Source: a virus (lineage: Duplodnaviria; Caudoviricetes). From it: a stretch of 51,929 bases of DNA. The notes under the pieces were generated by a model. That model worked only from the letters and a program-made list of their open reading frames with translations. It had not been told where the DNA came from and ran no database searches. The position numbers and the translations under genes were made by a program. This document shows positions 12,564 to 45,844 of this stretch, one piece after another; within the stretch, counting starts at the first letter, position 1; each line of letters opens with the position of its first letter. The stretch lies in IMG/VR virus record IMGVR_UViG_3300032017_000002, positions 1-51,929 of that record. One strand, given 5' to 3'.

Positions 12564-13511
12564 TCATCGGGCCCACGTCCCGGACCCCTGTGCGGCGCTG
12601 CGCACCTCGCGCAGCTCGGCCTCCAGCTCGGCGATCCGAGCATCCCGACCGTCCGCTACGGCGACGGTCGCGCCGGTCAGCTTCGAGACGATGTCCTCCA
12701 GCTCGGCGGCGCGCCCCTCCTCCGAGAGCAGCGCGTTGCGGGTCTGCTCGTGCTGCTCGCGCTCGTAGGCCAGCTCGTTGTGCTCGCGCTCGGACTCCAG
12801 CTCGGCGATCCGGAGGGCGAGCCGCGAGCGGTCGGTGTTCCACTCGTTCTGGGCGGCCAGCGCCGTGTCGACCATCCGGACCGCCTGGACTTCCAGCGCG
12901 GCGATCCGATCCAGGGCATGGCCCAGTTCGCCACGGGTCTGGTCGTCGGTCGCCTCGGCGCGCTCGGCCCGCTTGCGCTGCACGCTCAGCTCGGCCTCCA
13001 GCTCGGCGATCCGCTGGCGCACAACGCTGACGTGGTCGCGGACCAGCCCCTGGCCGCCGAGCAGATCGCGCGCGCCAGCGGCGGCCAGCTCGCCGAGCCT
13101 GTCCAGCGACGCACGCGGCTGGCCGGCCTCGGCCTCGTCGAGCGTGGCGTACGAGCCGGCCAGCCGCGTGCCGTCCGCGATGGCGGTGGCTACCTCGTCC
13201 ACGGTCGGGATGCCGGCGGGGTCGGCCTGCTCGACGGCCCGGTTGATCTCGTCCTCGGTCGGCAGCGCGGCCAGCCAGGCCAGCACGGTCTCGCGCCTGC
13301 CCCGCGAACCGGTGACTGCAGACCGCCCAGACGTGAGCAGGTCGGCGAACCGAACGGCGCCGGCCCGGGTGAACGAGACGGCGACGGCGACATCACCCCG
13401 CACGAACCGGTTGCGCCGGTCGCTGGTCGCGTACATCGACCAGCCGTGCTTGGCGGCGGTGGCGGCGATCTCGTCGCGGGCGGTCTGGCGGGGGGCGCTG
13501 GCGTTGGTCAT
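12564..13511 (-). CDS. Coiled-coil hypothetical protein, leaderless
   Basis: ATG 7 nt after the -10 box; repeated 'RIAELEAEL' heptads. Confidence 0.65.
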   Translation of the reverse strand: MTNASAPRQTARDEIAATAAKHGWSMYATSDRRNRFVRGDVAVAVSFTRAGAVRFADLLTSGRSAVTGSRGRRETVLAWLAALPTEDEINRAVEQADPAGIPTVDEVATAIADGTRLAGSYATLDEAEAGQPRASLDRLGELAAAGARDLLGGQGLVRDHVSVVRQRIAELEAELSVQRKRAERAEATDDQTRGELGHALDRIAALEVQAVRMVDTALAAQNEWNTDRSRLALRIAELESEREHNELAYEREQHEQTRNALLSEEGRAAELEDIVSKLTGATVAVADGRDARIAELEAELREVRSAAQGSGTWAR

Positions 13512-13559
13512 GGGAGTGACTCTACCCCGGGGTGGAGTGCGAGTCAACCCCGGGGGCGA
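13500..13559 (-). promoter_or_regulatory. Leaderless promoter with paired operators (copy 2; 60 bp identical to 13962-14021)
   Basis: Minus strand TTGACT-17 nt-TAGAGT-cactccc-ATG; one ACCCCGGGGT in the spacer/-10 edge and a near-copy at the -35. Confidence 0.85.
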
Positions 13560-13776: not shown

Positions 13777-13973
13777 CCGTACAGCTCCGTGCGCGCCTGC
13801 TCGTCCAGGCCGATCTCGTCCAGCTCGACACCGGCGCGCCGCGCGGCGCGCGCGATGCCGGCGGCGACGCGCTGGGCGTTTGCCCGCTCGGCGAGCGTGG
13901 CGCCGGGCCGGCGCGCATCGCGCCGAGCGGCGAGGTACTCGGCTGCGTGGTCGCGAGCTGCGGCGTTGGTCAT
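13773..13973 (-). CDS. Small hypothetical protein, leaderless
   Basis: ATG directly after promoter copy 3; GTGA overlap with the next ORF. Confidence 0.55.
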   Translation of the reverse strand: MTNAAARDHAAEYLAARRDARRPGATLAERANAQRVAAGIARAARRAGVELDEIGLDEQARTELYG

Positions 13974-14021
13974 GGGAGTGACTCTACCCCGGGGTGGAGT
14001 GCGAGTCAACCCCGGGGGCGA
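13962..14021 (-). promoter_or_regulatory. Leaderless promoter with paired operators (copy 3)
   Basis: Exact copy of 13500-13559. Confidence 0.85.
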
Positions 14022-15343: not shown

Positions 15344-15580
15344 TCAGCGTCCGTGGGTGGTGTCGGTGACCTGGACGCGGTGGCCGTCGGCGCCGGCGGT
15401 GCGGGCGAAGTGCTGCACGTACTCGCTGACCTGGTCGCGGTCGACGAGCGGGTAGCTGGCCTCGGTCACCGCGCCGGTACGGCGCCCGACGATGCGGGTG
15501 CGCGCCTCGTAGCGGTGGTTGCGGGCTTCCACGGGCACGATGGTGGCGGTGGCGGTCGGGGTGGTGTTTCGCTTCGTCAT
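15344..15580 (-). CDS. Small hypothetical protein, leaderless (MTKRNTT...)
   Basis: ATG 7 nt after the -10 of promoter copy 4. Confidence 0.6.
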   Translation of the reverse strand: MTKRNTTPTATATIVPVEARNHRYEARTRIVGRRTGAVTEASYPLVDRDQVSEYVQHFARTAGADGHRVQVTDTTHGR

Positions 15581-15626
15581 GGGAGGAACTCTACCCCGGG
15601 GTGGAGCACGAGTCAACCCCGGGGTG
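15578..15626 (-). promoter_or_regulatory. Leaderless promoter with paired operators (copy 4)
   Basis: Minus strand TTGACT-17 nt-TAGAGT-tcctccc-ATG with two ACCCCGGGGT. Confidence 0.85.
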
Positions 15627-31086: not shown

Positions 31087-32709
31087 ATGGCGCTGCACCT
31101 GCCGCAGGGCTACGACCGTGAGGCGCTGCTGGAGCCGCTGACCGAGGTGGTGCGCCACCGGGGCGACTGGGTGGCGCGGTGGAAGGTCGACGGACAGTTC
31201 CGGCGCGACATCACCGTGCACTCCCCTGCCCGGTTCGCGCTGATCTACCTGCCCCACCAGCTGCGCAGCCGGGAGACCGGGATGCGCTACTCGCTGGCCC
31301 GGCTGCACCTGGACCTGGCCAAGCGGGCGCGGCGCTGGGCGCGCCCGGGCGGGTTCCGCGACGCCGTCGTGGCACCGCGGTTCTCGGCCAAGAGCACGTG
31401 GGACCTGGTCATCAATCCCATGTGGGCGCTGGCGCACCGGCATCGGCGCCTGGTGCTCGGGGTGGGTGACTCGGTCGAGCAGATCCGTCCGCACCTGGGC
31501 ACCTGGCGCGCCGAGCTGGCCGACAACGCGCTGTTGCGCCAGGACTTCCCGCATCTGATCCCGGCGCGCCGGCCAGGGGTACAGGACACCGCGAGCACGG
31601 TGACCACGCGCGACGGCTGCACGTTCGCGGTGCGCTCGCTGGGCTCGCGCACGCGCGGACTCAAGATCGGGTCGGACCGCCCGGACGTGATCGTCATCGA
31701 CGACCCGGAACCGGACGGCGCGGACTACTCCGATCGCGCCCGCGCGCGCCGGTTGGAGATCATCCGCAACACCCTGCTGCCGATGAACGAGCAGGCGGCC
31801 GTGGTGCTGCAGGGCACCGTGGTGCGCTACGGGGCGATCATGCACGACGTGGTGCTGGCGGCCGGCTCATGTGCCAACACGTCCCCGAAGGGGTCACCGG
31901 CCGCCAGCGAGAACTCCAGGTTGCCCGCAGCGCCATCCACGGTAGCCGACTGGGTCACCGAAGAGGGGTTCGCCTGTCACCATTACCCGGCCATCGTCAC
32001 CGGACCCGACGGGGTCGAGCACTCGTTCTGGGAGCAGCGCTACGCGCTGGCCTGGCTACTCGGCCAGCGACACCTGCACTCCTACGCGCTGAACTTCGAC
32101 GGCCGCCCGCCCGCGCCCGGGGGGCGGCACTTCCGCGCGGACAGCTTCGCCTACGGCCGGCGGCCGGTCCGCGAGCTGGTGATGTTCATCGACACCGCAC
32201 CCACGGTGACCGACGCGTCGGACTACACGGCCTACGTGGTCGGCGGACTGGCCGACGACGGGCGGGTGCAGCTGGAGTACGCGCGGGCGTGGCGGCTGAC
32301 CAGCACGCAGATCCGCGAGCGCGCGCAAGCGCTGTGCGCCACCGACGACCGGATCCGCACGGTCTACCTGGAGCGCAACGTGGCTCACGACTGGGCGCGC
32401 GGGGTGCTGGAGCCGATCGACCTGCGCACCCGGGAGCCGGTGCGCCTGGCGCCCGGGGTGCGCGTGGAGACCTACCTGGCCGGCGGGTCGAAGAACGGGC
32501 GGATCGCGGTGCTGCTCGACGACGTGGAGCGCGGTGACGTGCGCCTGGGAGATCGGGACTGCGCCCGCGAGCTGGTCGCACAGGCCCAGCGCTGGCCGGA
32601 CGTGGACCACGACGACCTGGTCGATGCGGGCGCCGCGCTGGTCGATCATCTGCTGCGCGGATCGGAGTCAGGACCCACCCGCGCGGGTGCTCGGACGTCC
32701 TCCAGGTAG
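31087..32709 (+). CDS. Terminase large subunit-like ATPase/nuclease (second copy, outside the head module)
   Basis: Walker A-like 'APRFSAKST', Walker B 'RPDVIVIDDPE', motif 'LQGT', RNase H-like C-terminal 'FIDTA...SDYTA...HDDLVDA'. Confidence 0.82.
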   Translation: MALHLPQGYDREALLEPLTEVVRHRGDWVARWKVDGQFRRDITVHSPARFALIYLPHQLRSRETGMRYSLARLHLDLAKRARRWARPGGFRDAVVAPRFSAKSTWDLVINPMWALAHRHRRLVLGVGDSVEQIRPHLGTWRAELADNALLRQDFPHLIPARRPGVQDTASTVTTRDGCTFAVRSLGSRTRGLKIGSDRPDVIVIDDPEPDGADYSDRARARRLEIIRNTLLPMNEQAAVVLQGTVVRYGAIMHDVVLAAGSCANTSPKGSPAASENSRLPAAPSTVADWVTEEGFACHHYPAIVTGPDGVEHSFWEQRYALAWLLGQRHLHSYALNFDGRPPAPGGRHFRADSFAYGRRPVRELVMFIDTAPTVTDASDYTAYVVGGLADDGRVQLEYARAWRLTSTQIRERAQALCATDDRIRTVYLERNVAHDWARGVLEPIDLRTREPVRLAPGVRVETYLAGGSKNGRIAVLLDDVERGDVRLGDRDCARELVAQAQRWPDVDHDDLVDAGAALVDHLLRGSESGPTRAGARTSSR

Positions 32710-37916: not shown

Positions 37917-38239
37917 CCAGCCTGATCGACCCGCCGCGTCCGGACGGCAACCAGGTGCCGCAGCCCAAGCACGTCGCGCGCCAGGTCGGCGAGTCCTATC
38001 GGGACTGGGGCGCCCGCCTGGCGGGTCAGCTGCGCGCGGCCGAGCGCGAGATCGAGGAACGCGACGTCACCATCCGGGCGAACGAGCTGGAGATCGAGCG
38101 CCTGCGCGCGGCGCGCGCCGTGCTGGCCGACCGAGACGCTGAGCTGCTCGAACTCAAGGGACCATGCAGCGGGCCGGGGTGCCGACTGCACTGCGCGCAC
38201 CGGGGCCCGTGCGACATCCGCGAGGCGCGCACCCCGTGA
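37913..38239 (+). CDS. Hypothetical coiled-coil protein with Cys/His tail
   Basis: 'KGPCS...CRLH.AH.GPCD'; GTGA overlap with terL. Confidence 0.5.
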   Translation: MTSLIDPPRPDGNQVPQPKHVARQVGESYRDWGARLAGQLRAAEREIEERDVTIRANELEIERLRAARAVLADRDAELLELKGPCSGPGCRLHCAHRGPCDIREARTP

Positions 38240-39891
38240 CCACCCTCGATCAGCGTGCCCGCCGGCCGCAGGGCCGCGCACGCCCCCCCGGCCGGCCGGA
38301 TTCCGGCCCGGTGCTGGGCTCGACCACCCCGCGGATCTGGACGCGCCCGCTGGTGGTCGGCGAGCCGGGTCCGTGCGGGTGCGGCTGCGCGCTGACCGAG
38401 CACAGTTCACTGGGCTTCCAGGCCATCCGGTTCGCCTCGGACGTGCTGCGCGTGCGGCTGTGGCCCTGGCAGCGCTGGTGGCTGATCCACGCCCTGGAGC
38501 TGCGGCCCGACAGCTCGTTCCGCTTCCGCGTGATCCTGACCCTGGTTGCGCGCCAGCAGGGCAAGACCTGGCTGCTCAAGGTGCTCAGCCTCTGGGCGAT
38601 GTACCTCGGGCACGTACAGCTGGTGCTGGGCGCCGCGCAGTCCCTGGACATCGCCGACGAGTCCTGGAAGGGCGCGGTCGAGCTGGCGCAGTCCACGCCC
38701 GCGCTCGCCGAGGAGGTTGCCTCGATCATCCGGGGCAACGGCAAGACCTGCCTGACGCTGGTCAAGCGGTCACGAACGACCGGCCAGGTGGTGCCCGACG
38801 AGATGGGTCCGCGCTACCGCACGGTGGCAGCCACTCCGTCGGCCGGGCGTGGCCTCTCAGTGGGCCTGCTGATCCTGGACGAGCTGCGCGAGCACCGGGA
38901 CTGGGCGGCCTGGGCCAGTCTGACCAAGACCACGATTGCCCAGCTCAACGCGCTGACCGTGCTGATCAGCAACGCTGGCGAGGATCGCTCGGTGGTGCTG
39001 AACGCGACCAGGGAGTCCGCGCTGGCCGCGATGGAGGATCCGGACGCGGACGACTCGATCGCGCTGATGGAGTGGTCGGCGCCCGACGGCTGCGACCTGG
39101 ACGACGAGCTGGCCCTGGCCTGCGCGTGCCCGACGCTGAACCTGCCCGGCTCCGGGTTCACCACCCGGGTGGCCGCCGGCATGCGCGCCGTCGAGCCGCC
39201 CGGGGTGTACCGGACCGAGGTGCTCTGCCAGCGGGTGTCGGCGCTGGATCCGCCGCTGGACCCGATCGCGTGGGCGAACTGCGTGGATCACTCCGGCTCC
39301 CTGGTCACGGTGCGCGAGCAGGTCTGCGTGGTGGTCGACGTGGCCGAGGACGGCGGGCACGCGGTACTGGCCGGCGCGGCGGTGCTGGGTGACGGGCGGA
39401 TCCGGGTCGAGACGATGGCCGCGTGGAACGACGTCGAGACGATGCGTCGCGAGCTGCCCGAGCTGATCGAGCGCATCCGGCCGCTCGACATGGGCTGGTA
39501 CCCCTCGGGCGGGTCGGCCGCCTACGGCGCGGAGTTCCGCTCGCTACGCCTGCGCACCCGGCGCGCGCTGGCGAAGGTGGTCGGCGAGCGCGGCGAGCGC
39601 CACGTGCAGGAGTACGACGAGGACGAGCTGACCCGCCTGGTGGCCGGCATGGAGCGCGAGGCGGCCATGGGCTTCTCGGCGAAGGTGCGCGCCGGGCGGA
39701 TCCTGCGCTCGCCGGACCCGCTGATGACCGCGCACGGCGCGGCGGCGGTGAAGATCCCGCGCCCGGGTGGGTGGACCTTCGGACGCACCGACGGCGGGCA
39801 CGTCACCGCGGTGCGCGCGGCGGCCGGCGCGGCATACCTGGCCCAGCTCGCGCCGCCGGCTGCGCCGATGCCGCGCTCGGCGGTGTTCTGA
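38236..39891 (+). CDS. terL: Terminase large subunit
   Basis: 'L.PWQ' adenine-binding motif, Walker A 'VARQQGKT', Walker B 'LLILDELRE', 'ISNAG', 'YRTEVLCQ'; upstream of the portal. Confidence 0.93.
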   Translation: MTTLDQRARRPQGRARPPGRPDSGPVLGSTTPRIWTRPLVVGEPGPCGCGCALTEHSSLGFQAIRFASDVLRVRLWPWQRWWLIHALELRPDSSFRFRVILTLVARQQGKTWLLKVLSLWAMYLGHVQLVLGAAQSLDIADESWKGAVELAQSTPALAEEVASIIRGNGKTCLTLVKRSRTTGQVVPDEMGPRYRTVAATPSAGRGLSVGLLILDELREHRDWAAWASLTKTTIAQLNALTVLISNAGEDRSVVLNATRESALAAMEDPDADDSIALMEWSAPDGCDLDDELALACACPTLNLPGSGFTTRVAAGMRAVEPPGVYRTEVLCQRVSALDPPLDPIAWANCVDHSGSLVTVREQVCVVVDVAEDGGHAVLAGAAVLGDGRIRVETMAAWNDVETMRRELPELIERIRPLDMGWYPSGGSAAYGAEFRSLRLRTRRALAKVVGERGERHVQEYDEDELTRLVAGMEREAAMGFSAKVRAGRILRSPDPLMTAHGAAAVKIPRPGGWTFGRTDGGHVTAVRAAAGAAYLAQLAPPAAPMPRSAVF

Positions 39892-40141: not shown

Positions 40142-42193
40142 ATGGGGCTCGGCCAGCTGCTCGGGCCGGTGCTGAACCGGAACCTGGTCTACGACGTCAC
40201 CAACACCCAGTCCGGCGCGCACGACACCTACACGATCGTGACCGACGGCGGGCCGGGCATGTATCCGGACTGGAGCGCGGGCGCGTATCGCGGTTTGCTC
40301 GGGATCCCGGCCGCCGACCAGGCCATGATGCTGATCGCCGGGCTGATCGGGCGGGTGCCCTGGTGCGGCTACCGCAAGGTGGCCGGTCGGCGTCCGGTGA
40401 AGCTCGACCCAGAGCCGACCATCCTGGACTACCCGGCGGGCAGCTTCGAGATCCCGCTACGCACCTGGCACGGCTGGGCCATGGACCGGATGGCGCACGG
40501 CAACGGGGTCGGCCTGGTGGCCGCCCGCACGCCGGACGGCTGGCCGAGCGCCTACACGCCGGTGTCGGCCGAGATGGTCTCGGTGGCGCGCGCCGGCCAG
40601 GGGTGGATGCCGGCGGGGTTCGCCGAGGGCGAGATCGTCTGGTACATCGGCGGGCGGTACTACCACCAGTACGAGGTGATCCATTTCAAGGGGCCCGCGA
40701 AGCCCGGCGACCTGCGCGGCATGGGCGTGCTGGAGAACCACTTCGCCACCCTGGACCGGTCCAGGAAGCTGGACCGTCAGGCGTCGGACGTGGACGCGAA
40801 CGCGGTGCCGACCGGCCTGCTCAAGTCGCTGAACCCGGACCTGACCCAGGCCGAGGCGACCGCGCTCAAGGACGCGTGGCGCACCGCCCAGGCGACCCGC
40901 ACGGTGGCCGTGCTGAACCCGTCCACGGAGTTCGAGCCGATCAGCTGGTCGCCGACCGACGCACAGCTGCTGGAGGCCCGGCAGTACACCCTGACCGAAT
41001 GGGCCAACATCTTCGGGATCGACTCGTCGTTCCTGGGCGGGGACTCCCCGAAGGGAACCTACGCGAATCTGGAGGAAAAGGGCCTGGATCTGCTGCGATA
41101 CGGGCGACCTGGAGAAATGGTCGTGGAGTTCGAGCAGACCCTGACCATGCAGCTCCCGCGCGGGCAGTACGTCAAGGCCAATATGGATTTCACGTTGCGG
41201 CCCAGCACGCAGACCCGTTACGAGACCCATGCCATTGGCATCGCGGGCGGCTTCCTGACCCCGGACGAGGCGCGCGAGCTGGAGGACCGGGACCCGCTGA
41301 CCGAGCAGCAGCGTGCGCAGATCCAGGCGGCCAACGCGAAGGCGCCCGCAGGCCCGGCCGGTCAGCAGTCCTCGGCGCCGGTGATGCCGCAGTCCCCCGG
41401 CGAGGTGGCCGGGCGTGGACGCCTGCGGGCCCAGCTGGAAGTGCTCGACATCCTGCGCGGACGGCACTCCGCGCCGGAGCCGGGCGGCGCCGGCGGCGAC
41501 CAGCCACGGTGGCCGGAGGGCAGTCCGTTGGGCGGCCAGTGGATCGGCACCTCGTCGAGCGCGAGCCGGGGCGAGGGCGCCCCGGCCTCCGGGGTCGTGC
41601 TGTTCGACCCGAACGATTCCGGCGAGCTGGAGGAGACCCGTCCCGCCGGCGCGAAGCGGCGTAGCGGACAGGGGGGCGGCGGCGACACCGGACTCAAGCC
41701 CTACCGGCTCAACGACGAGAAGTACTGCCCGACCTGCGGCGGCAAGGCCCAGGACCCGCAGATGTCGGACCCGGAGTCCAGCGCGGGGTTCGCCGGATGG
41801 AAGCCCGACGGGACCGAGGTCTGGTACAGCGCGCCCGAGTCCTGCGACGAGCCGTATCACGACAAGTCGGACCCGGACTATCAGAACGACCGCGCGCAGG
41901 ATGCGCGCGTCTCGCGCGATCCGGCGATCACCTGGTTCGACGAGGCCGACGTCCTCGACGACGACGAGATCGTGCCGGGCGCCGACGATGCAGAGCTGCG
42001 CGCAGCGGACCTGTCCGGCGGCCGGCTCAAGGCGTACTGGACGACCGGTCCGGGCCTGGCGAAGTGGCGCGGGTCGCCGACCCCGTGGCGGGCGTTGCGC
42101 CGGCACCTGTCCAAGTACCTGTCCGGGCGCAAGCTGGATGCGACCACCTCGGCCTGGTACCGGATCGTGTTCGGAAGGCTGCCGAACGGATGA
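40142..42193 (+). CDS. Portal protein (HK97 type) with about 280-aa C-terminal extension
   Basis: 'HGNG', 'EVIHFK...G.GVL', 'ISWSPTDAQLLEAR', 'YANLE', 'GFLTPDEARELED'. Confidence 0.9.
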   Translation: MGLGQLLGPVLNRNLVYDVTNTQSGAHDTYTIVTDGGPGMYPDWSAGAYRGLLGIPAADQAMMLIAGLIGRVPWCGYRKVAGRRPVKLDPEPTILDYPAGSFEIPLRTWHGWAMDRMAHGNGVGLVAARTPDGWPSAYTPVSAEMVSVARAGQGWMPAGFAEGEIVWYIGGRYYHQYEVIHFKGPAKPGDLRGMGVLENHFATLDRSRKLDRQASDVDANAVPTGLLKSLNPDLTQAEATALKDAWRTAQATRTVAVLNPSTEFEPISWSPTDAQLLEARQYTLTEWANIFGIDSSFLGGDSPKGTYANLEEKGLDLLRYGRPGEMVVEFEQTLTMQLPRGQYVKANMDFTLRPSTQTRYETHAIGIAGGFLTPDEARELEDRDPLTEQQRAQIQAANAKAPAGPAGQQSSAPVMPQSPGEVAGRGRLRAQLEVLDILRGRHSAPEPGGAGGDQPRWPEGSPLGGQWIGTSSSASRGEGAPASGVVLFDPNDSGELEETRPAGAKRRSGQGGGGDTGLKPYRLNDEKYCPTCGGKAQDPQMSDPESSAGFAGWKPDGTEVWYSAPESCDEPYHDKSDPDYQNDRAQDARVSRDPAITWFDEADVLDDDEIVPGADDAELRAADLSGGRLKAYWTTGPGLAKWRGSPTPWRALRRHLSKYLSGRKLDATTSAWYRIVFGRLPNG

Positions 42194-42999
42194 GCGTCAT
42201 CATCCCGGCCGGCCAGCTGGTGCAGCGCGTCCGATGGGGCGCGGTCTACCCGGCCGGGTTCGGTCCGGCCCCGATGCCGGCCGCGCGGGTATGGCTGCAC
42301 CACTCCGAGACGGTCTCGGCGGGGCCGAACGCGACGCTGGACGCGGACATCGCCACCGTGCAGGCGCTGGAGCGGATCGGGCAGCAGCGGTTCGGCGGCG
42401 GGATCAGCTACACGTTCGCGGTGTGCGAGTCGGGGCGGATCTTCGAGGGCACCGGGCCGACCCGGCGCGGTGCGCACACCAAGGGCGAGAACACGGTGGC
42501 GCGCGCGATCGTGCTGGTGGGCAGCTACATGACCCGCGAGCCGACCGAGCAGCAGCTGGCCGCCGTCGCACTGCTGCTGGCGCGTGGCGCGCCGGGCTGG
42601 TGGCGCCTGCCCGAGCTGGCCGGCGGACACCGGGACGCGCCCGGCGCGGCGACCAGCTGCCCGGGCGACCGCGCGTACGCGCACGTAGGTCAGATCAACG
42701 TCAGAGCCGCGCAGCTGTGGGCCGCAGGGGAGGACGACGACATGTTCGACGAGCGCGACCGCGCGAAGCTCGACCGGGTGCATCAGGAGCTGACCCGCCA
42801 GCTGGCCAACCGGCGCGGCCCGAGCGGGCGCACCATCGTCAACGGCGGCCAGGACACGCCCGCGGGCTACGCGGCCAACGCCGATGGCATGGGCTTTCGC
42901 GCCGAGGCCGTGCTGGGCTCGCTGCTGCTGGCCCAGCAGCAGACCAACCGCGCCCTGGCAGAGCTGACTGCGCGGATCGAGAGGATGGAAGGCCGATGA
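42190..42999 (+). CDS. Endolysin, N-acetylmuramoyl-L-alanine amidase (Amidase_2/PGRP-like)
   Basis: 'WLHHS', 'ISYTF...GRIFEG...GAHT.G.N', 'GHRD...TSCPG'. Confidence 0.88.
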   Translation: MSVIIPAGQLVQRVRWGAVYPAGFGPAPMPAARVWLHHSETVSAGPNATLDADIATVQALERIGQQRFGGGISYTFAVCESGRIFEGTGPTRRGAHTKGENTVARAIVLVGSYMTREPTEQQLAAVALLLARGAPGWWRLPELAGGHRDAPGAATSCPGDRAYAHVGQINVRAAQLWAAGEDDDMFDERDRAKLDRVHQELTRQLANRRGPSGRTIVNGGQDTPAGYAANADGMGFRAEAVLGSLLLAQQQTNRALAELTARIERMEGR

Positions 43000-43856: not shown

Positions 43857-44429
43857 ATGGCTCACGCAACGCTCACGATGCGCGGCACGGCGCCGCTGCT
43901 CATGCACAACACCCGCCTGGCCGACCCGCTCGATCCGATCGTGCGGGAGATGAAACCGATCATGGCCAAGCGCTCGCGCAAGACCGACGAGGACCGCGAG
44001 GCGCTGGCGCGCCTGGAGTACGTCGGTGGCCTCTACTTCGACCCGGACGTCGGCCCGTTCGTGCCCGGCGAGAACGTCCGGCAGTGCCTGCGCGGAGCGG
44101 CCAAGCGCAGCCGGCGCGGAGACAAGGTGCAGGCGGGCGTGCTCGTCCCGGAGCGGGTCAACCCGCTGGGCTACACCGGCCCGCGTGACCTGGACGAGCT
44201 GTGGAAGGACGCGAACTTCCGCACCGTGGACTCGGTGGTGGTCGAGCGCAAGCGGATCATGCGCACCCGCCCGATGTTCCGGGACTGGGCGCTCTCGGTG
44301 GAGATCGAGTTCGACCCGGAGATCATCGACCGCACCGAGCTGGAGGAGTTCGCCCGGCTCGCCGGATCCATCGTCGGGATCGGGGACTGGCGCCCGGTGT
44401 ACGGCCGGTTCGCGGTGGAGTTCGAGTGA
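43857..44429 (+). CDS. Stand-alone Cas7/RAMP-like RNA-binding protein (putative effector of an RNA-guided system)
   Basis: First strand 'LTMRGTAPLLMH' (RAMP beta1), 'PFVPGENVRQCLRGAA' (compare 'IPGSS.KG..R'), thumb 'RIMRTRPMF', Gly-rich loop 'AGSIVGIGDWRPVYGRFAV'; 190 aa. Confidence 0.8.
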   Translation: MAHATLTMRGTAPLLMHNTRLADPLDPIVREMKPIMAKRSRKTDEDREALARLEYVGGLYFDPDVGPFVPGENVRQCLRGAAKRSRRGDKVQAGVLVPERVNPLGYTGPRDLDELWKDANFRTVDSVVVERKRIMRTRPMFRDWALSVEIEFDPEIIDRTELEEFARLAGSIVGIGDWRPVYGRFAVEFE

Positions 44430-44971
44430 TGTCCCCGTTCACCCCGGTGGGCGCGGTCGCGCGCTGGCGCACGCTCTACGACCTGCTGCGGGCGGCGAAG
44501 GTCGGCGAGGTGGTCACCTACGTGGCCATGGCGACCGCGCTGGAGCTGCACCCGGACCAGGACCGTACGACCATCCAGCTGGCGGTGCGTCGGGCGGTCA
44601 AGGAGTTGGAGACCGAGAATCGGCGCACCGCGCGGGCGGTGCCGAACAAGGGCTACGAGATCGTCGAGCCGGGCGTGCAGTTGGACCTTGCGCGCCATCA
44701 CCAGGGCAAGGCGGGCCGCGCGCTGGTACGCGCGCAGAGTAAGGCGGTCAACGTCGACTTCAACGGCATGGACGCCGGCATCCGCCAGGCGTTCGAGCTG
44801 GTCGGCCAGGCGCTGGCCGCGCAGATCGACCTGTCGCGCCGGCTCTCGGTACGCACTGAGCGGCTAGAGAAAGCCCTGTCCAGCACGACCCAGCGCGGCG
44901 AGCGGACCGAGGCCGAGGTGGCCGCGCTGCACGAGCGGCTGGCGAAGCTGGAGAAGCTCGTGAGCGAGTAG
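44429..44971 (+). CDS. Winged-helix plus coiled-coil accessory protein of the cassette
   Basis: TGATG coupling to the RAMP gene; 'GEVVTY..M...L...AVRRAVKELE...AVPNKGYEIV' winged-helix pattern; C-terminal heptads. Confidence 0.7.
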   Translation: MSPFTPVGAVARWRTLYDLLRAAKVGEVVTYVAMATALELHPDQDRTTIQLAVRRAVKELETENRRTARAVPNKGYEIVEPGVQLDLARHHQGKAGRALVRAQSKAVNVDFNGMDAGIRQAFELVGQALAAQIDLSRRLSVRTERLEKALSSTTQRGERTEAEVAALHERLAKLEKLVSE

Positions 44972-45086
44972 GACCCGGCTCGGCATGGCACGGCGGGGCA
45001 TGGCACGGCGGGGCAGGACCCGGCTCGGCGTGGCAGGGCGGGGCGGGGCGCGGCTCGGCTCGGCACGGCATGGCCGGGCGAGGCAT

Positions 45087-45138
45087 GGACGGTTGGGCGA
45101 GCGGCACACATCCGGGTTCGAGTCCCGGACGCCCGCGC
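45087..45138 (+). repeat. 52-bp structured repeat, copy 1
   Basis: ggacggttgggcgagcggcacacatccgggttcgagtcccggacgcccgcgc. Confidence 0.95.
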
Positions 45139-45265
45139 GTGGCGCGGCCGGGCAGGGTTTGGCGTGGCGGGGCCGGGCAAGTCATGGCCTGGCAAGGCAT
45201 GGCAGTGCTGGGCAGGGCGAGGCCAGGCGCGGCAAGGCGAGGCCAGGCGCGGCGCGACGAGGCAG

Positions 45266-45317
45266 GGACGGTTGGGCGAGCGGCACACATCCGGGTTCGG
45301 GTCCTGGACGCCCGCGC
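45266..45317 (+). repeat. 52-bp structured repeat, copy 2
   Basis: Two substitutions relative to copy 1. Confidence 0.95.
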
Positions 45318-45439
45318 AAGGCGTGGCGAGGCAATGCGTGGTGAGGCTCGGCAGGGCTGGGCTATGCATGTCCGGGCTGGGCGCGGTGAGGCTGGACGTG
45401 GCAAGGCAGGGCGATGCCAGGCACGGCGAGGCGAGGCAG

Positions 45440-45491
45440 GGACGGCTGGGCGAGCGGCACACATCCGGGTTCGGGTCCTGGACGCCCGCGC
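45440..45491 (+). repeat. 52-bp structured repeat, copy 3
   Basis: One substitution relative to copy 2. Confidence 0.95.
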
Positions 45492-45640
45492 TTGGTGAGG
45501 CGTGGCGTGGACAGGCGAGGCATGGCAGGGCGCCGCTGGGCAGGGCATGGCCAGGTTGGACGAGGCAAGGCCGGGCCAGGCAAGGCAGTGCGGGGCGTGG
45601 CTGAGCGCGGCAAGGCAAGACCCGGCGCGGCATGGCAGGG

Positions 45641-45674
45641 GTACGGCCCCCGGACTTCGGTCCAGGGGCCGTAC
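45641..45674 (+). terminator. cUUCGg-capped hairpin closing the array
   Basis: gtacggcccc-c-ggac-ttcg-gtcc-a-ggggccgtac; no U-tract. Confidence 0.7.
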
Positions 45675-45844
45675 GTCGTGCGCTGGTCTGCGGGAACGTA
45701 GATCAGCTACCCTCGCGCCAGCAGCACCGAGGTCGACACCCCTCACCGAGGCCGGCACCCCGCGAGAGCAGCACCCCGGCAGGTAGGTAGGCACCCCGAC
45801 ACGTAGGTGGGTCGAGTCCATCCCCATCTGTCGGGAGTCCCCCC

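Follow-up and report, generated by a model that had tools for sequence, protein, structure and literature searches.

A putative VIPR guide in an actinobacterial phage matches codons of predicted excision-factor genes

The question raised by this locus is which DNA would be read by a series of dinucleotides set at regular intervals between GGC triplets in a phage genome. The window, i.e. the whole stretch of 51,929 nt analysed here, is a soil phage sequence (51.9 kb, approximately 72% G+C) with genes for terminase, portal, protease, capsid, lysin and primase. At 45022–45086 it contains exactly 13 perfect GGC+NN pentamers with the NN series TC GT AG GG GG GC TC TC AC AT CG GA AT. The original prediction had read the reverse complement of these dinucleotides as first and second codon positions with the wobble base skipped, a decoding that was reproduced exactly, and had likened the resulting peptide to a motif of small proteins in phiRv1-type satellites (Rv1584c-like). 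The answer favoured here, with good confidence, is that the segment is a type II VIPR guide matching codons of predicted recombination directionality factors (RDFs), and that a Vipr-guide complex likely binds resident prophages and satellites, where it would block excision and early replication.

The VIPR cassette and its array

In the cassette, two small genes precede a pentamer array, and the whole is located between the prohead protease and capsid genes within the late operon (Table 1). The 190-aa product of the first gene is related to the 'SUSP1 Vipr protein' in PDB 36PP (chain 36pp_D, E 3.8e-34) and to ALH47069.1 of phiSUSP1 (35% identity over 189 aa). The product of the second gene matches phrog_5926 (E 1e-9) and, in a weak and positional match, the product of the gene following SUSP1 vipr (37% over 70 aa, E 7e-6 pairwise). 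Neither Pfam nor NCBIfam holds a family for Vipr or for the target protein described below. With a gene for Vipr, a RAMP homologue, intergenic GGY/NN tracts carrying a constant structured tail, and a vap1-type accessory gene (of weak homology) next to the tailed array, the locus can be assigned, from homology and layout, to VIPR, a system newly reported as a CRISPR relative, with type II as the closest form.

Table 1. Features of the VIPR cassette (coordinates of the whole window)
Feature	Position	Strand	Remark
vipr (RAMP-fold Vipr protein, 190 aa)	43857..44429	+	homology to PDB 36pp_D and phiSUSP1 ALH47069.1
vap1-like accessory gene (180 aa)	44429..44971	+	start overlaps vipr stop; match to SUSP1 neighbour gene, phrog_5926
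Tract 1, 5' part, 10 pentamers with repeated leader, no target found	44972..45021	+
vrRNA1 guide units, 13 GGC/NN	45022..45086	+	antisense to coding strand of Rv1584c-like predicted RDF genes
Tail 1, tRNA-elbow-like	45087..45138	+
Tail 1, outer stem	45095-45099/45130-45134
Tail 1, GG	45103-45104
Tail 1, T-stem	45111-45116/45124-45129
Tail 1, T-loop	45117-45123
Tract 2, 25 units	45141..45265	+
Tail 2	45266..45317	+
Tract 3, 24 units	45320..45439	+
Tail 3	45440..45491	+
Tract 4, 29 units, without tRNA-like tail	45494..45638	+
Strong hairpin closing the array, no U-run	45640..45675	+	z -5.05, 0/200 shuffles

As in the type II VIPR of Escherichia phage SUSP1, vipr and vap1 form a two-gene locus with tailed GGY/NN tracts downstream, the guide skips one base per codon, at the wobble position, and a self target is absent (best score in the window 17/22). 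The present locus differs from that of SUSP1 in belonging to an actinobacterial phage, in the length of its tracts (23–29 units compared to 9–16), in a tail that is tRNA-elbow-like instead of a pseudoknot, and in that no vrRNA was seen upstream of vipr. The tracts are approximately twice as long as published guides. Tract 1 truly starts at 44972 and comprises 23 units in all; the leader motif is present in it twice (at 44970 and 45015), and only its last 13–14 units match the target family. A 52-base tail recurs three times in the array, while the fourth tract ends in the hairpin instead. Neither a sigma-70 promoter nor a U-tailed terminator was predicted, the closing hairpin receiving no terminator call, and no tRNA gene was found in the window. 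The letters of the array show no difference from contigs of a possible source run, which is not an independent comparison.

The three tails resemble mascRNA/menRNA and other tRNA-elbow mimics in that a short outer stem carries a stacked T-loop hairpin, with a GG at fixed distance; the Rfam match is below threshold (18.3 bits compared to 42.5, E 0.85), and no homology is claimed. A tRNA-elbow-like tail was found in 26 of 72 loci with a tract. In a survey of 73 distinct tails from 35 loci (among L050–L132), selected for the T-loop hairpin, GG was at the fixed place in 64 tails, and the outer 5-bp stem, which was not selected for, was paired in 285 of 320 cells (142–162 in slid controls) or, with one row per locus, in 137 of 150 compared to 86.7 ± 4.7 after shuffling. 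From these features the vrRNA tails are predicted to fold as tRNA-elbow mimics across the clade, with a covarying outer stem, and might offer host tRNA enzymes a route to cut the array. The likeness to tRNA is not mentioned in the main texts of the three VIPR papers or in one supplement, as far as these were available, and a literature search returned no paper on it.

A sister phage (contig L003) has a Vipr protein with 97% identity and the same tails, but its guides are mostly different and the tract 1 guide is absent. The first six units of tract 1 are common to the first tract of the sister phage and 11 units of tract 4 to its last tract; moreover, blocks of 5–11 units are common to different tracts of the two phages. 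Because of the duplicated leader and these common unit blocks, the guides appear to be shuffled by recombination within the GGC scaffold. Tract 4 of the sister phage (L003 5554–5645) was considered as a guide against the terminase Walker-A motif, with 19/22 at the terminases of Streptomyces prophages L033 and L035. This reading is unproven and was rejected: 8 of 432 shuffles reached at least 19, the exact scan gave no match, and indel-like errors are present in the contig.

Searches of the window with six integrase queries, with the family HMM and with Pfam on 56 ORFs detected neither an integrase nor an RDF, and for this reason a non-integrating phage with nothing to lose from an RDF target would fit. 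The motif read from tract 1 is absent from the window as well, as originally stated, with 0 matches at ≤3 mismatches and no hit of the family HMM at E ≤ 10. Among the best 120 relatives of the lysin, three carry names (two Pseudonocardia, one Actinoalloteichus), which hints at a host within the family of genome G422; this family was searched for targets because of these named relatives. The lysin gene itself (42190–42999) is placed between the portal and prohead protease genes. Two genes resembling the large terminase subunit belong to different families (31087–32706 and 38164–39888; phrog_38, E 1e-49, and TerL_ATPase), the former lying in a region that the sister contig does not cover. In the left arm, a short repeat occurs three times between 13404 and 15626 (near 13509–13555, 13962–14017 and 15573–15626).

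Matches of the guide and the elements that carry them

According to the parts of the VIPR reports that were available, Vipr forms filaments that skip one base between NN pairs when reading double-stranded DNA, transcription is silenced whichever strand is targeted, and natural targets occur on both strands (10.64898/2026.04.26.720920). The one-base skip, the alignment on the wobble position, the resulting proofing against synonymous escape and the targeting of satellites and prophages are all published for VIPR in these texts (10.64898/2026.04.26.720920; 10.64898/2026.10.15.759431; 10.64898/2026.04.26.720927). The original idea of an anti-satellite guide that blunts synonymous escape therefore matches VIPR, although it is already published and not new.

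The exact 13-unit regular expression, proposed earlier as a check, gave no match in GTDB, in the JGI metagenomes or in the window. A relaxed 10-unit pattern, in which units 2, 7 and 13 were opened and A/G was allowed at unit 4, gave 31 matches at 29 distinct sites (7 in IMG/VR, 24 in GTDB); the opened units were chosen post hoc, guided by the phiRv1-type motif. The reversed-order control pattern found none in IMG/VR, compared to seven. All 24 GTDB matches are in records titled as Actinomycetota. As predicted, every one of the 31 is in codon register, the skipped base being the third of each codon; the guide runs antisense to the coding strand, and each site lies near the 3' end of a gene of one and the same small-protein family. 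Past the footprint, D/E, Q and R, which the pattern does not constrain, are kept in 24, 30 and 24 of the 31, the Q standing two codons beyond. On the full 26 bases, the matches score 20 (6 matches), 21 (10), 22 (8), 23 (6) and 24 (1), and 25 of them reach 21/26, which was taken as the threshold (80% match, as in the VIPR papers); with the single-nucleotide skip on the wobble base, these sites correspond to natural targets as defined for VIPR. The best match, L026, scores 24/26, with 22/22 over units 3–13.

In the available parts of PMC5311408, PMC6379469 and PMC12268328, Rv1584c is described as the RDF of phiRv1, with a gene one or two genes away from that of the integrase. This role as an excision factor is the informative point, and the original prediction had missed it. 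The phiRv1-type motif proved real. An HMM built exclusively from the pattern matches recognised P0167, a 'putative PhiRv1 phage protein', with E 1.5e-17. The same-family HMM found the 73-aa protein P0157 (E 3e-15), which is taken here to be Rv1584c itself. The targets share with the phiRv1 RDF (Rv1584c/Xis) a small size, a C-terminal PPL motif and a large serine integrase encoded one or two genes away; the guide fits the phiRv1-like proteins themselves less closely, with at most 19/26 possible for P0157 and 21/26 for P0167. A large serine integrase is found within 3.3 kb of 25 of the 31 matches and a tyrosine integrase within 4.7 kb of two, while none was seen near the remaining four, each of which has only 0.2–3.6 kb of upstream sequence. 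Large serine integrases are also near 14 of 17 family members fetched by HMM and not by pattern, all from the likely host family. Downstream of the target gene, Pfam identified a primase or helicase family in many cases. A PHROG of unknown function (phrog_24177) matches four of six targets.

A complex modelled for the L026 protein and the neighbouring integrase scored 0.77, compared to 0.01 for the best control, and 10 of the 13 guide-read residues (37–49) lie within the modelled integrase interface. Among 157 solved pairs, 116 attain the mark applied to such scores, compared to 2 of 215 mismatched ones (run agreement 72% of contacts or more, partner pLDDT 70 or above), and the model may draw on solved integrase-RDF complexes. 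The model supports, but does not show, binding of the L026 protein to its integrase. From family membership and gene neighbourhood, the target family is predicted to consist of excision factors (RDFs) of large serine integrases, the activity being that expected of Rv1584c relatives. The element of L026 abuts a DUF222 gene (L026 2342–3664); phiRv1 inserts into genes of this type. In P0226, P0233, P0235, P0238 and P0240, the RDF-like motif is fused behind an excisionase-type HTH_17 domain.

Integrase-bearing mobile elements contain 27 of the 31 matches. The expectation of satellite targets in Actinomycetota held for the phylum and for the integrases, but four Streptomyces matches turned out to lie in tailed prophages. 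Two of them, L010 and L035, have genes for terminase, portal, protease, capsid, tape measure and lysin. In the other two, L033 and L020, genes for terminase, capsid and tape measure were found, and none of the four tailed elements qualifies as a satellite. Elements of the phiRv1 type are classed as putative satellites in the available part of PMC10085698. Within the 10 kb seen, L015, L024, L025 and L029 are compatible with satellites, many contigs ending early. Targets include tailed prophages and probable satellites.

The guide might be aimed at full temperate prophages and not at satellites, a sub-case of the favoured explanation and not exclusive of it, to which somewhat less than an even chance is given. 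The original satellite reading would then hold only in part. The tailed-phage genes of L010/L035, L033 and L020 point in this direction, as does the position of five of the six 23/26 matches of the relaxed pattern in or beside the Streptomyces-type subfamily. On the other side, the best match, L026, as far as its contig extends (it ends 0.3 kb past the target gene), and the metagenomic L045 are of the short integrase-RDF-primase type, and within 10 kb only a capsid gene was found at L025 and only a small terminase at L015.

Chance resemblance and strand

A second possibility is that the VIPR locus is real and the RDF resemblance is due to chance, the true target lying elsewhere or the guide having decayed. 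A perfect site was found neither in GTDB nor in the JGI metagenomes, and the three dropped units were chosen post hoc. When these held-out units were scored, unit 13 matched fully in 11 of the 31, unit 7 in three and unit 2 in none; the last of these adjoins the tail, next to which the filament is reported to assemble first (10.64898/2026.04.26.720927, available in part). A match of 23/26 exists outside the family (L046/L049; rejected, having no integrase and chromosomal neighbours), and the sister phage lacks the guide. A search of 400 random Actinomycetota genomes at ≤3 mismatches added no new match (control 0). A nine-unit core gave two IMG/VR matches, both regarded as chance and rejected, the first lying in an unrelated ORF of a phage and the second being out of frame.

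Other guides give no parallel. The last 13 units of tract 2 had no match in 201 genomes at ≤3 mismatches, nor did those of tract 3 in 201 genomes, and no other tract rose above the shuffle tail in the fetched elements. Two guide-side scans found no convergent guide, and 154 distinct tracts from 83 related VIPR loci reached at best 16/20 against RDF genes, which is the shuffle level.

The 17 members fetched by HMM have a median of 17/26, and four reach 21/26. With shuffled unit order, the median is 14.6 ± 0.5 (maximum 16 of 500), and with skips of 0, 2 or 3 nt it is 14–15; only the 1-nt skip is above background. As these members score lower than the pattern matches, the guide fits a subset of the target family, and its exact partner is not among the sampled genomes. 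L016 and L019 among the 31 matches and L145 among the four HMM-fetched members at 21/26 are from unpublished genomes; the conclusions hold without them.

Against chance stands the background determined with 28,188 unit-shuffled guides at 1.4 M sites, which is 6.4e-9 per site at ≥21/26 and 7.6e-11 at ≥23/26, yet nine family loci reach at least 23/26. Patterns free of holes land in the target family as well: the contiguous units 3–12 gave one match in the metagenomes, at the family member L045 (23/26), with primase and helicase directly downstream. In 381 genomes of G422's family, two sites agreed with the full pattern at ≤3 mismatches (control 0), one in a target-family member 1.9 kb from a serine integrase and the other unrelated. 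Furthermore, a wobble-register match to an excision gene of a mobile element belongs to the class published for VIPR, and the match falls on the predicted integrase-binding surface. A single good match in the whole of GTDB would not be significant; significance arises because the matches converge on one mobile-element family in register. Assuming 1e7 conserved mobile-element protein positions, two orientations and about eight guide windows, a rough look-elsewhere estimate puts the chance of such a resemblance at a few percent, and less if function is counted. Overall, a chance resemblance is considered unlikely.

Because the guide pairs with the coding strand, it could also act as antisense to RDF mRNA, the complex binding RNA instead of DNA; this is very improbable, as VIPR in the available parts of the reports binds double-stranded DNA and targets both strands (10.64898/2026.04.26.720920), and its structures contain an RNA-DNA triplex (10.64898/2026.04.26.720927).

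Proposed action and relation to known VIPR targets

If tract 1 is a VIPR guide against RDF genes, the array would be transcribed together with vipr-vap and then cut into guide-plus-tail RNAs, whose GGC units would be coated by Vipr. By binding the RDF gene at the start of the element's early operon, the complex would block transcription, and the element would neither excise nor start replication during phage growth. With this we infer that the vrRNA is expressed, that binding occurs at a match of 81–92%, that the targets act as RDFs, that the block is polar on primase and helicase, and that the phage benefits.

The nearest precedent is vrRNA4 of SUSP1, directed against F5 satellites, which likewise covers codon positions conserved in an excision gene and for which the predicted outcome is the same, an element locked in the chromosome. 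In the available part of the report, SUSP1 VIPR stops satellite excision by silencing the excision recombinase; there, the recombinase itself was the bench-tested target, in a satellite of E. coli (10.64898/2026.10.15.759431), whereas the target here would be a predicted directionality factor of large serine integrases, common to satellites and tailed prophages. The system and its code are known, and what is plausibly new is the inferred target class, the excision switch of large serine integrases. Actinobacteria, directionality factors and excisionases are not mentioned in those VIPR texts that could be searched, the supplementary data of which may list such targets.

A broader version, given slightly better than even chances, is that one guide acts as a phylum-wide lock, reading codons of the integrase-binding surface of RDFs and leaving satellites and prophages unable to excise, with the guides cut at the tRNA-elbow tails by tRNA-processing enzymes of the host. 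If this holds, VIPR would, with SUSP1 included, have converged on excision control in two phyla, and RDFs could be found by decoding guides. Such a natural target of an actinobacterial VIPR would lend support to the view that phages with VIPR prevail by keeping resident elements in place, and would extend this view from one satellite family of E. coli to prophages and satellites of Actinomycetota. It would also point to likely RDFs in a widespread family of small proteins labelled 'hypothetical', RDFs being in demand for integrase tools. Unannotated Vipr genes (46–54% identity) are present in the cultured actinophages Trine, prophiBWHA-1, MakoManhole and LittleE (L005, L050, L051 and L052), three of which show GGY tracts; these phages are ready test systems for actinophage VIPR.
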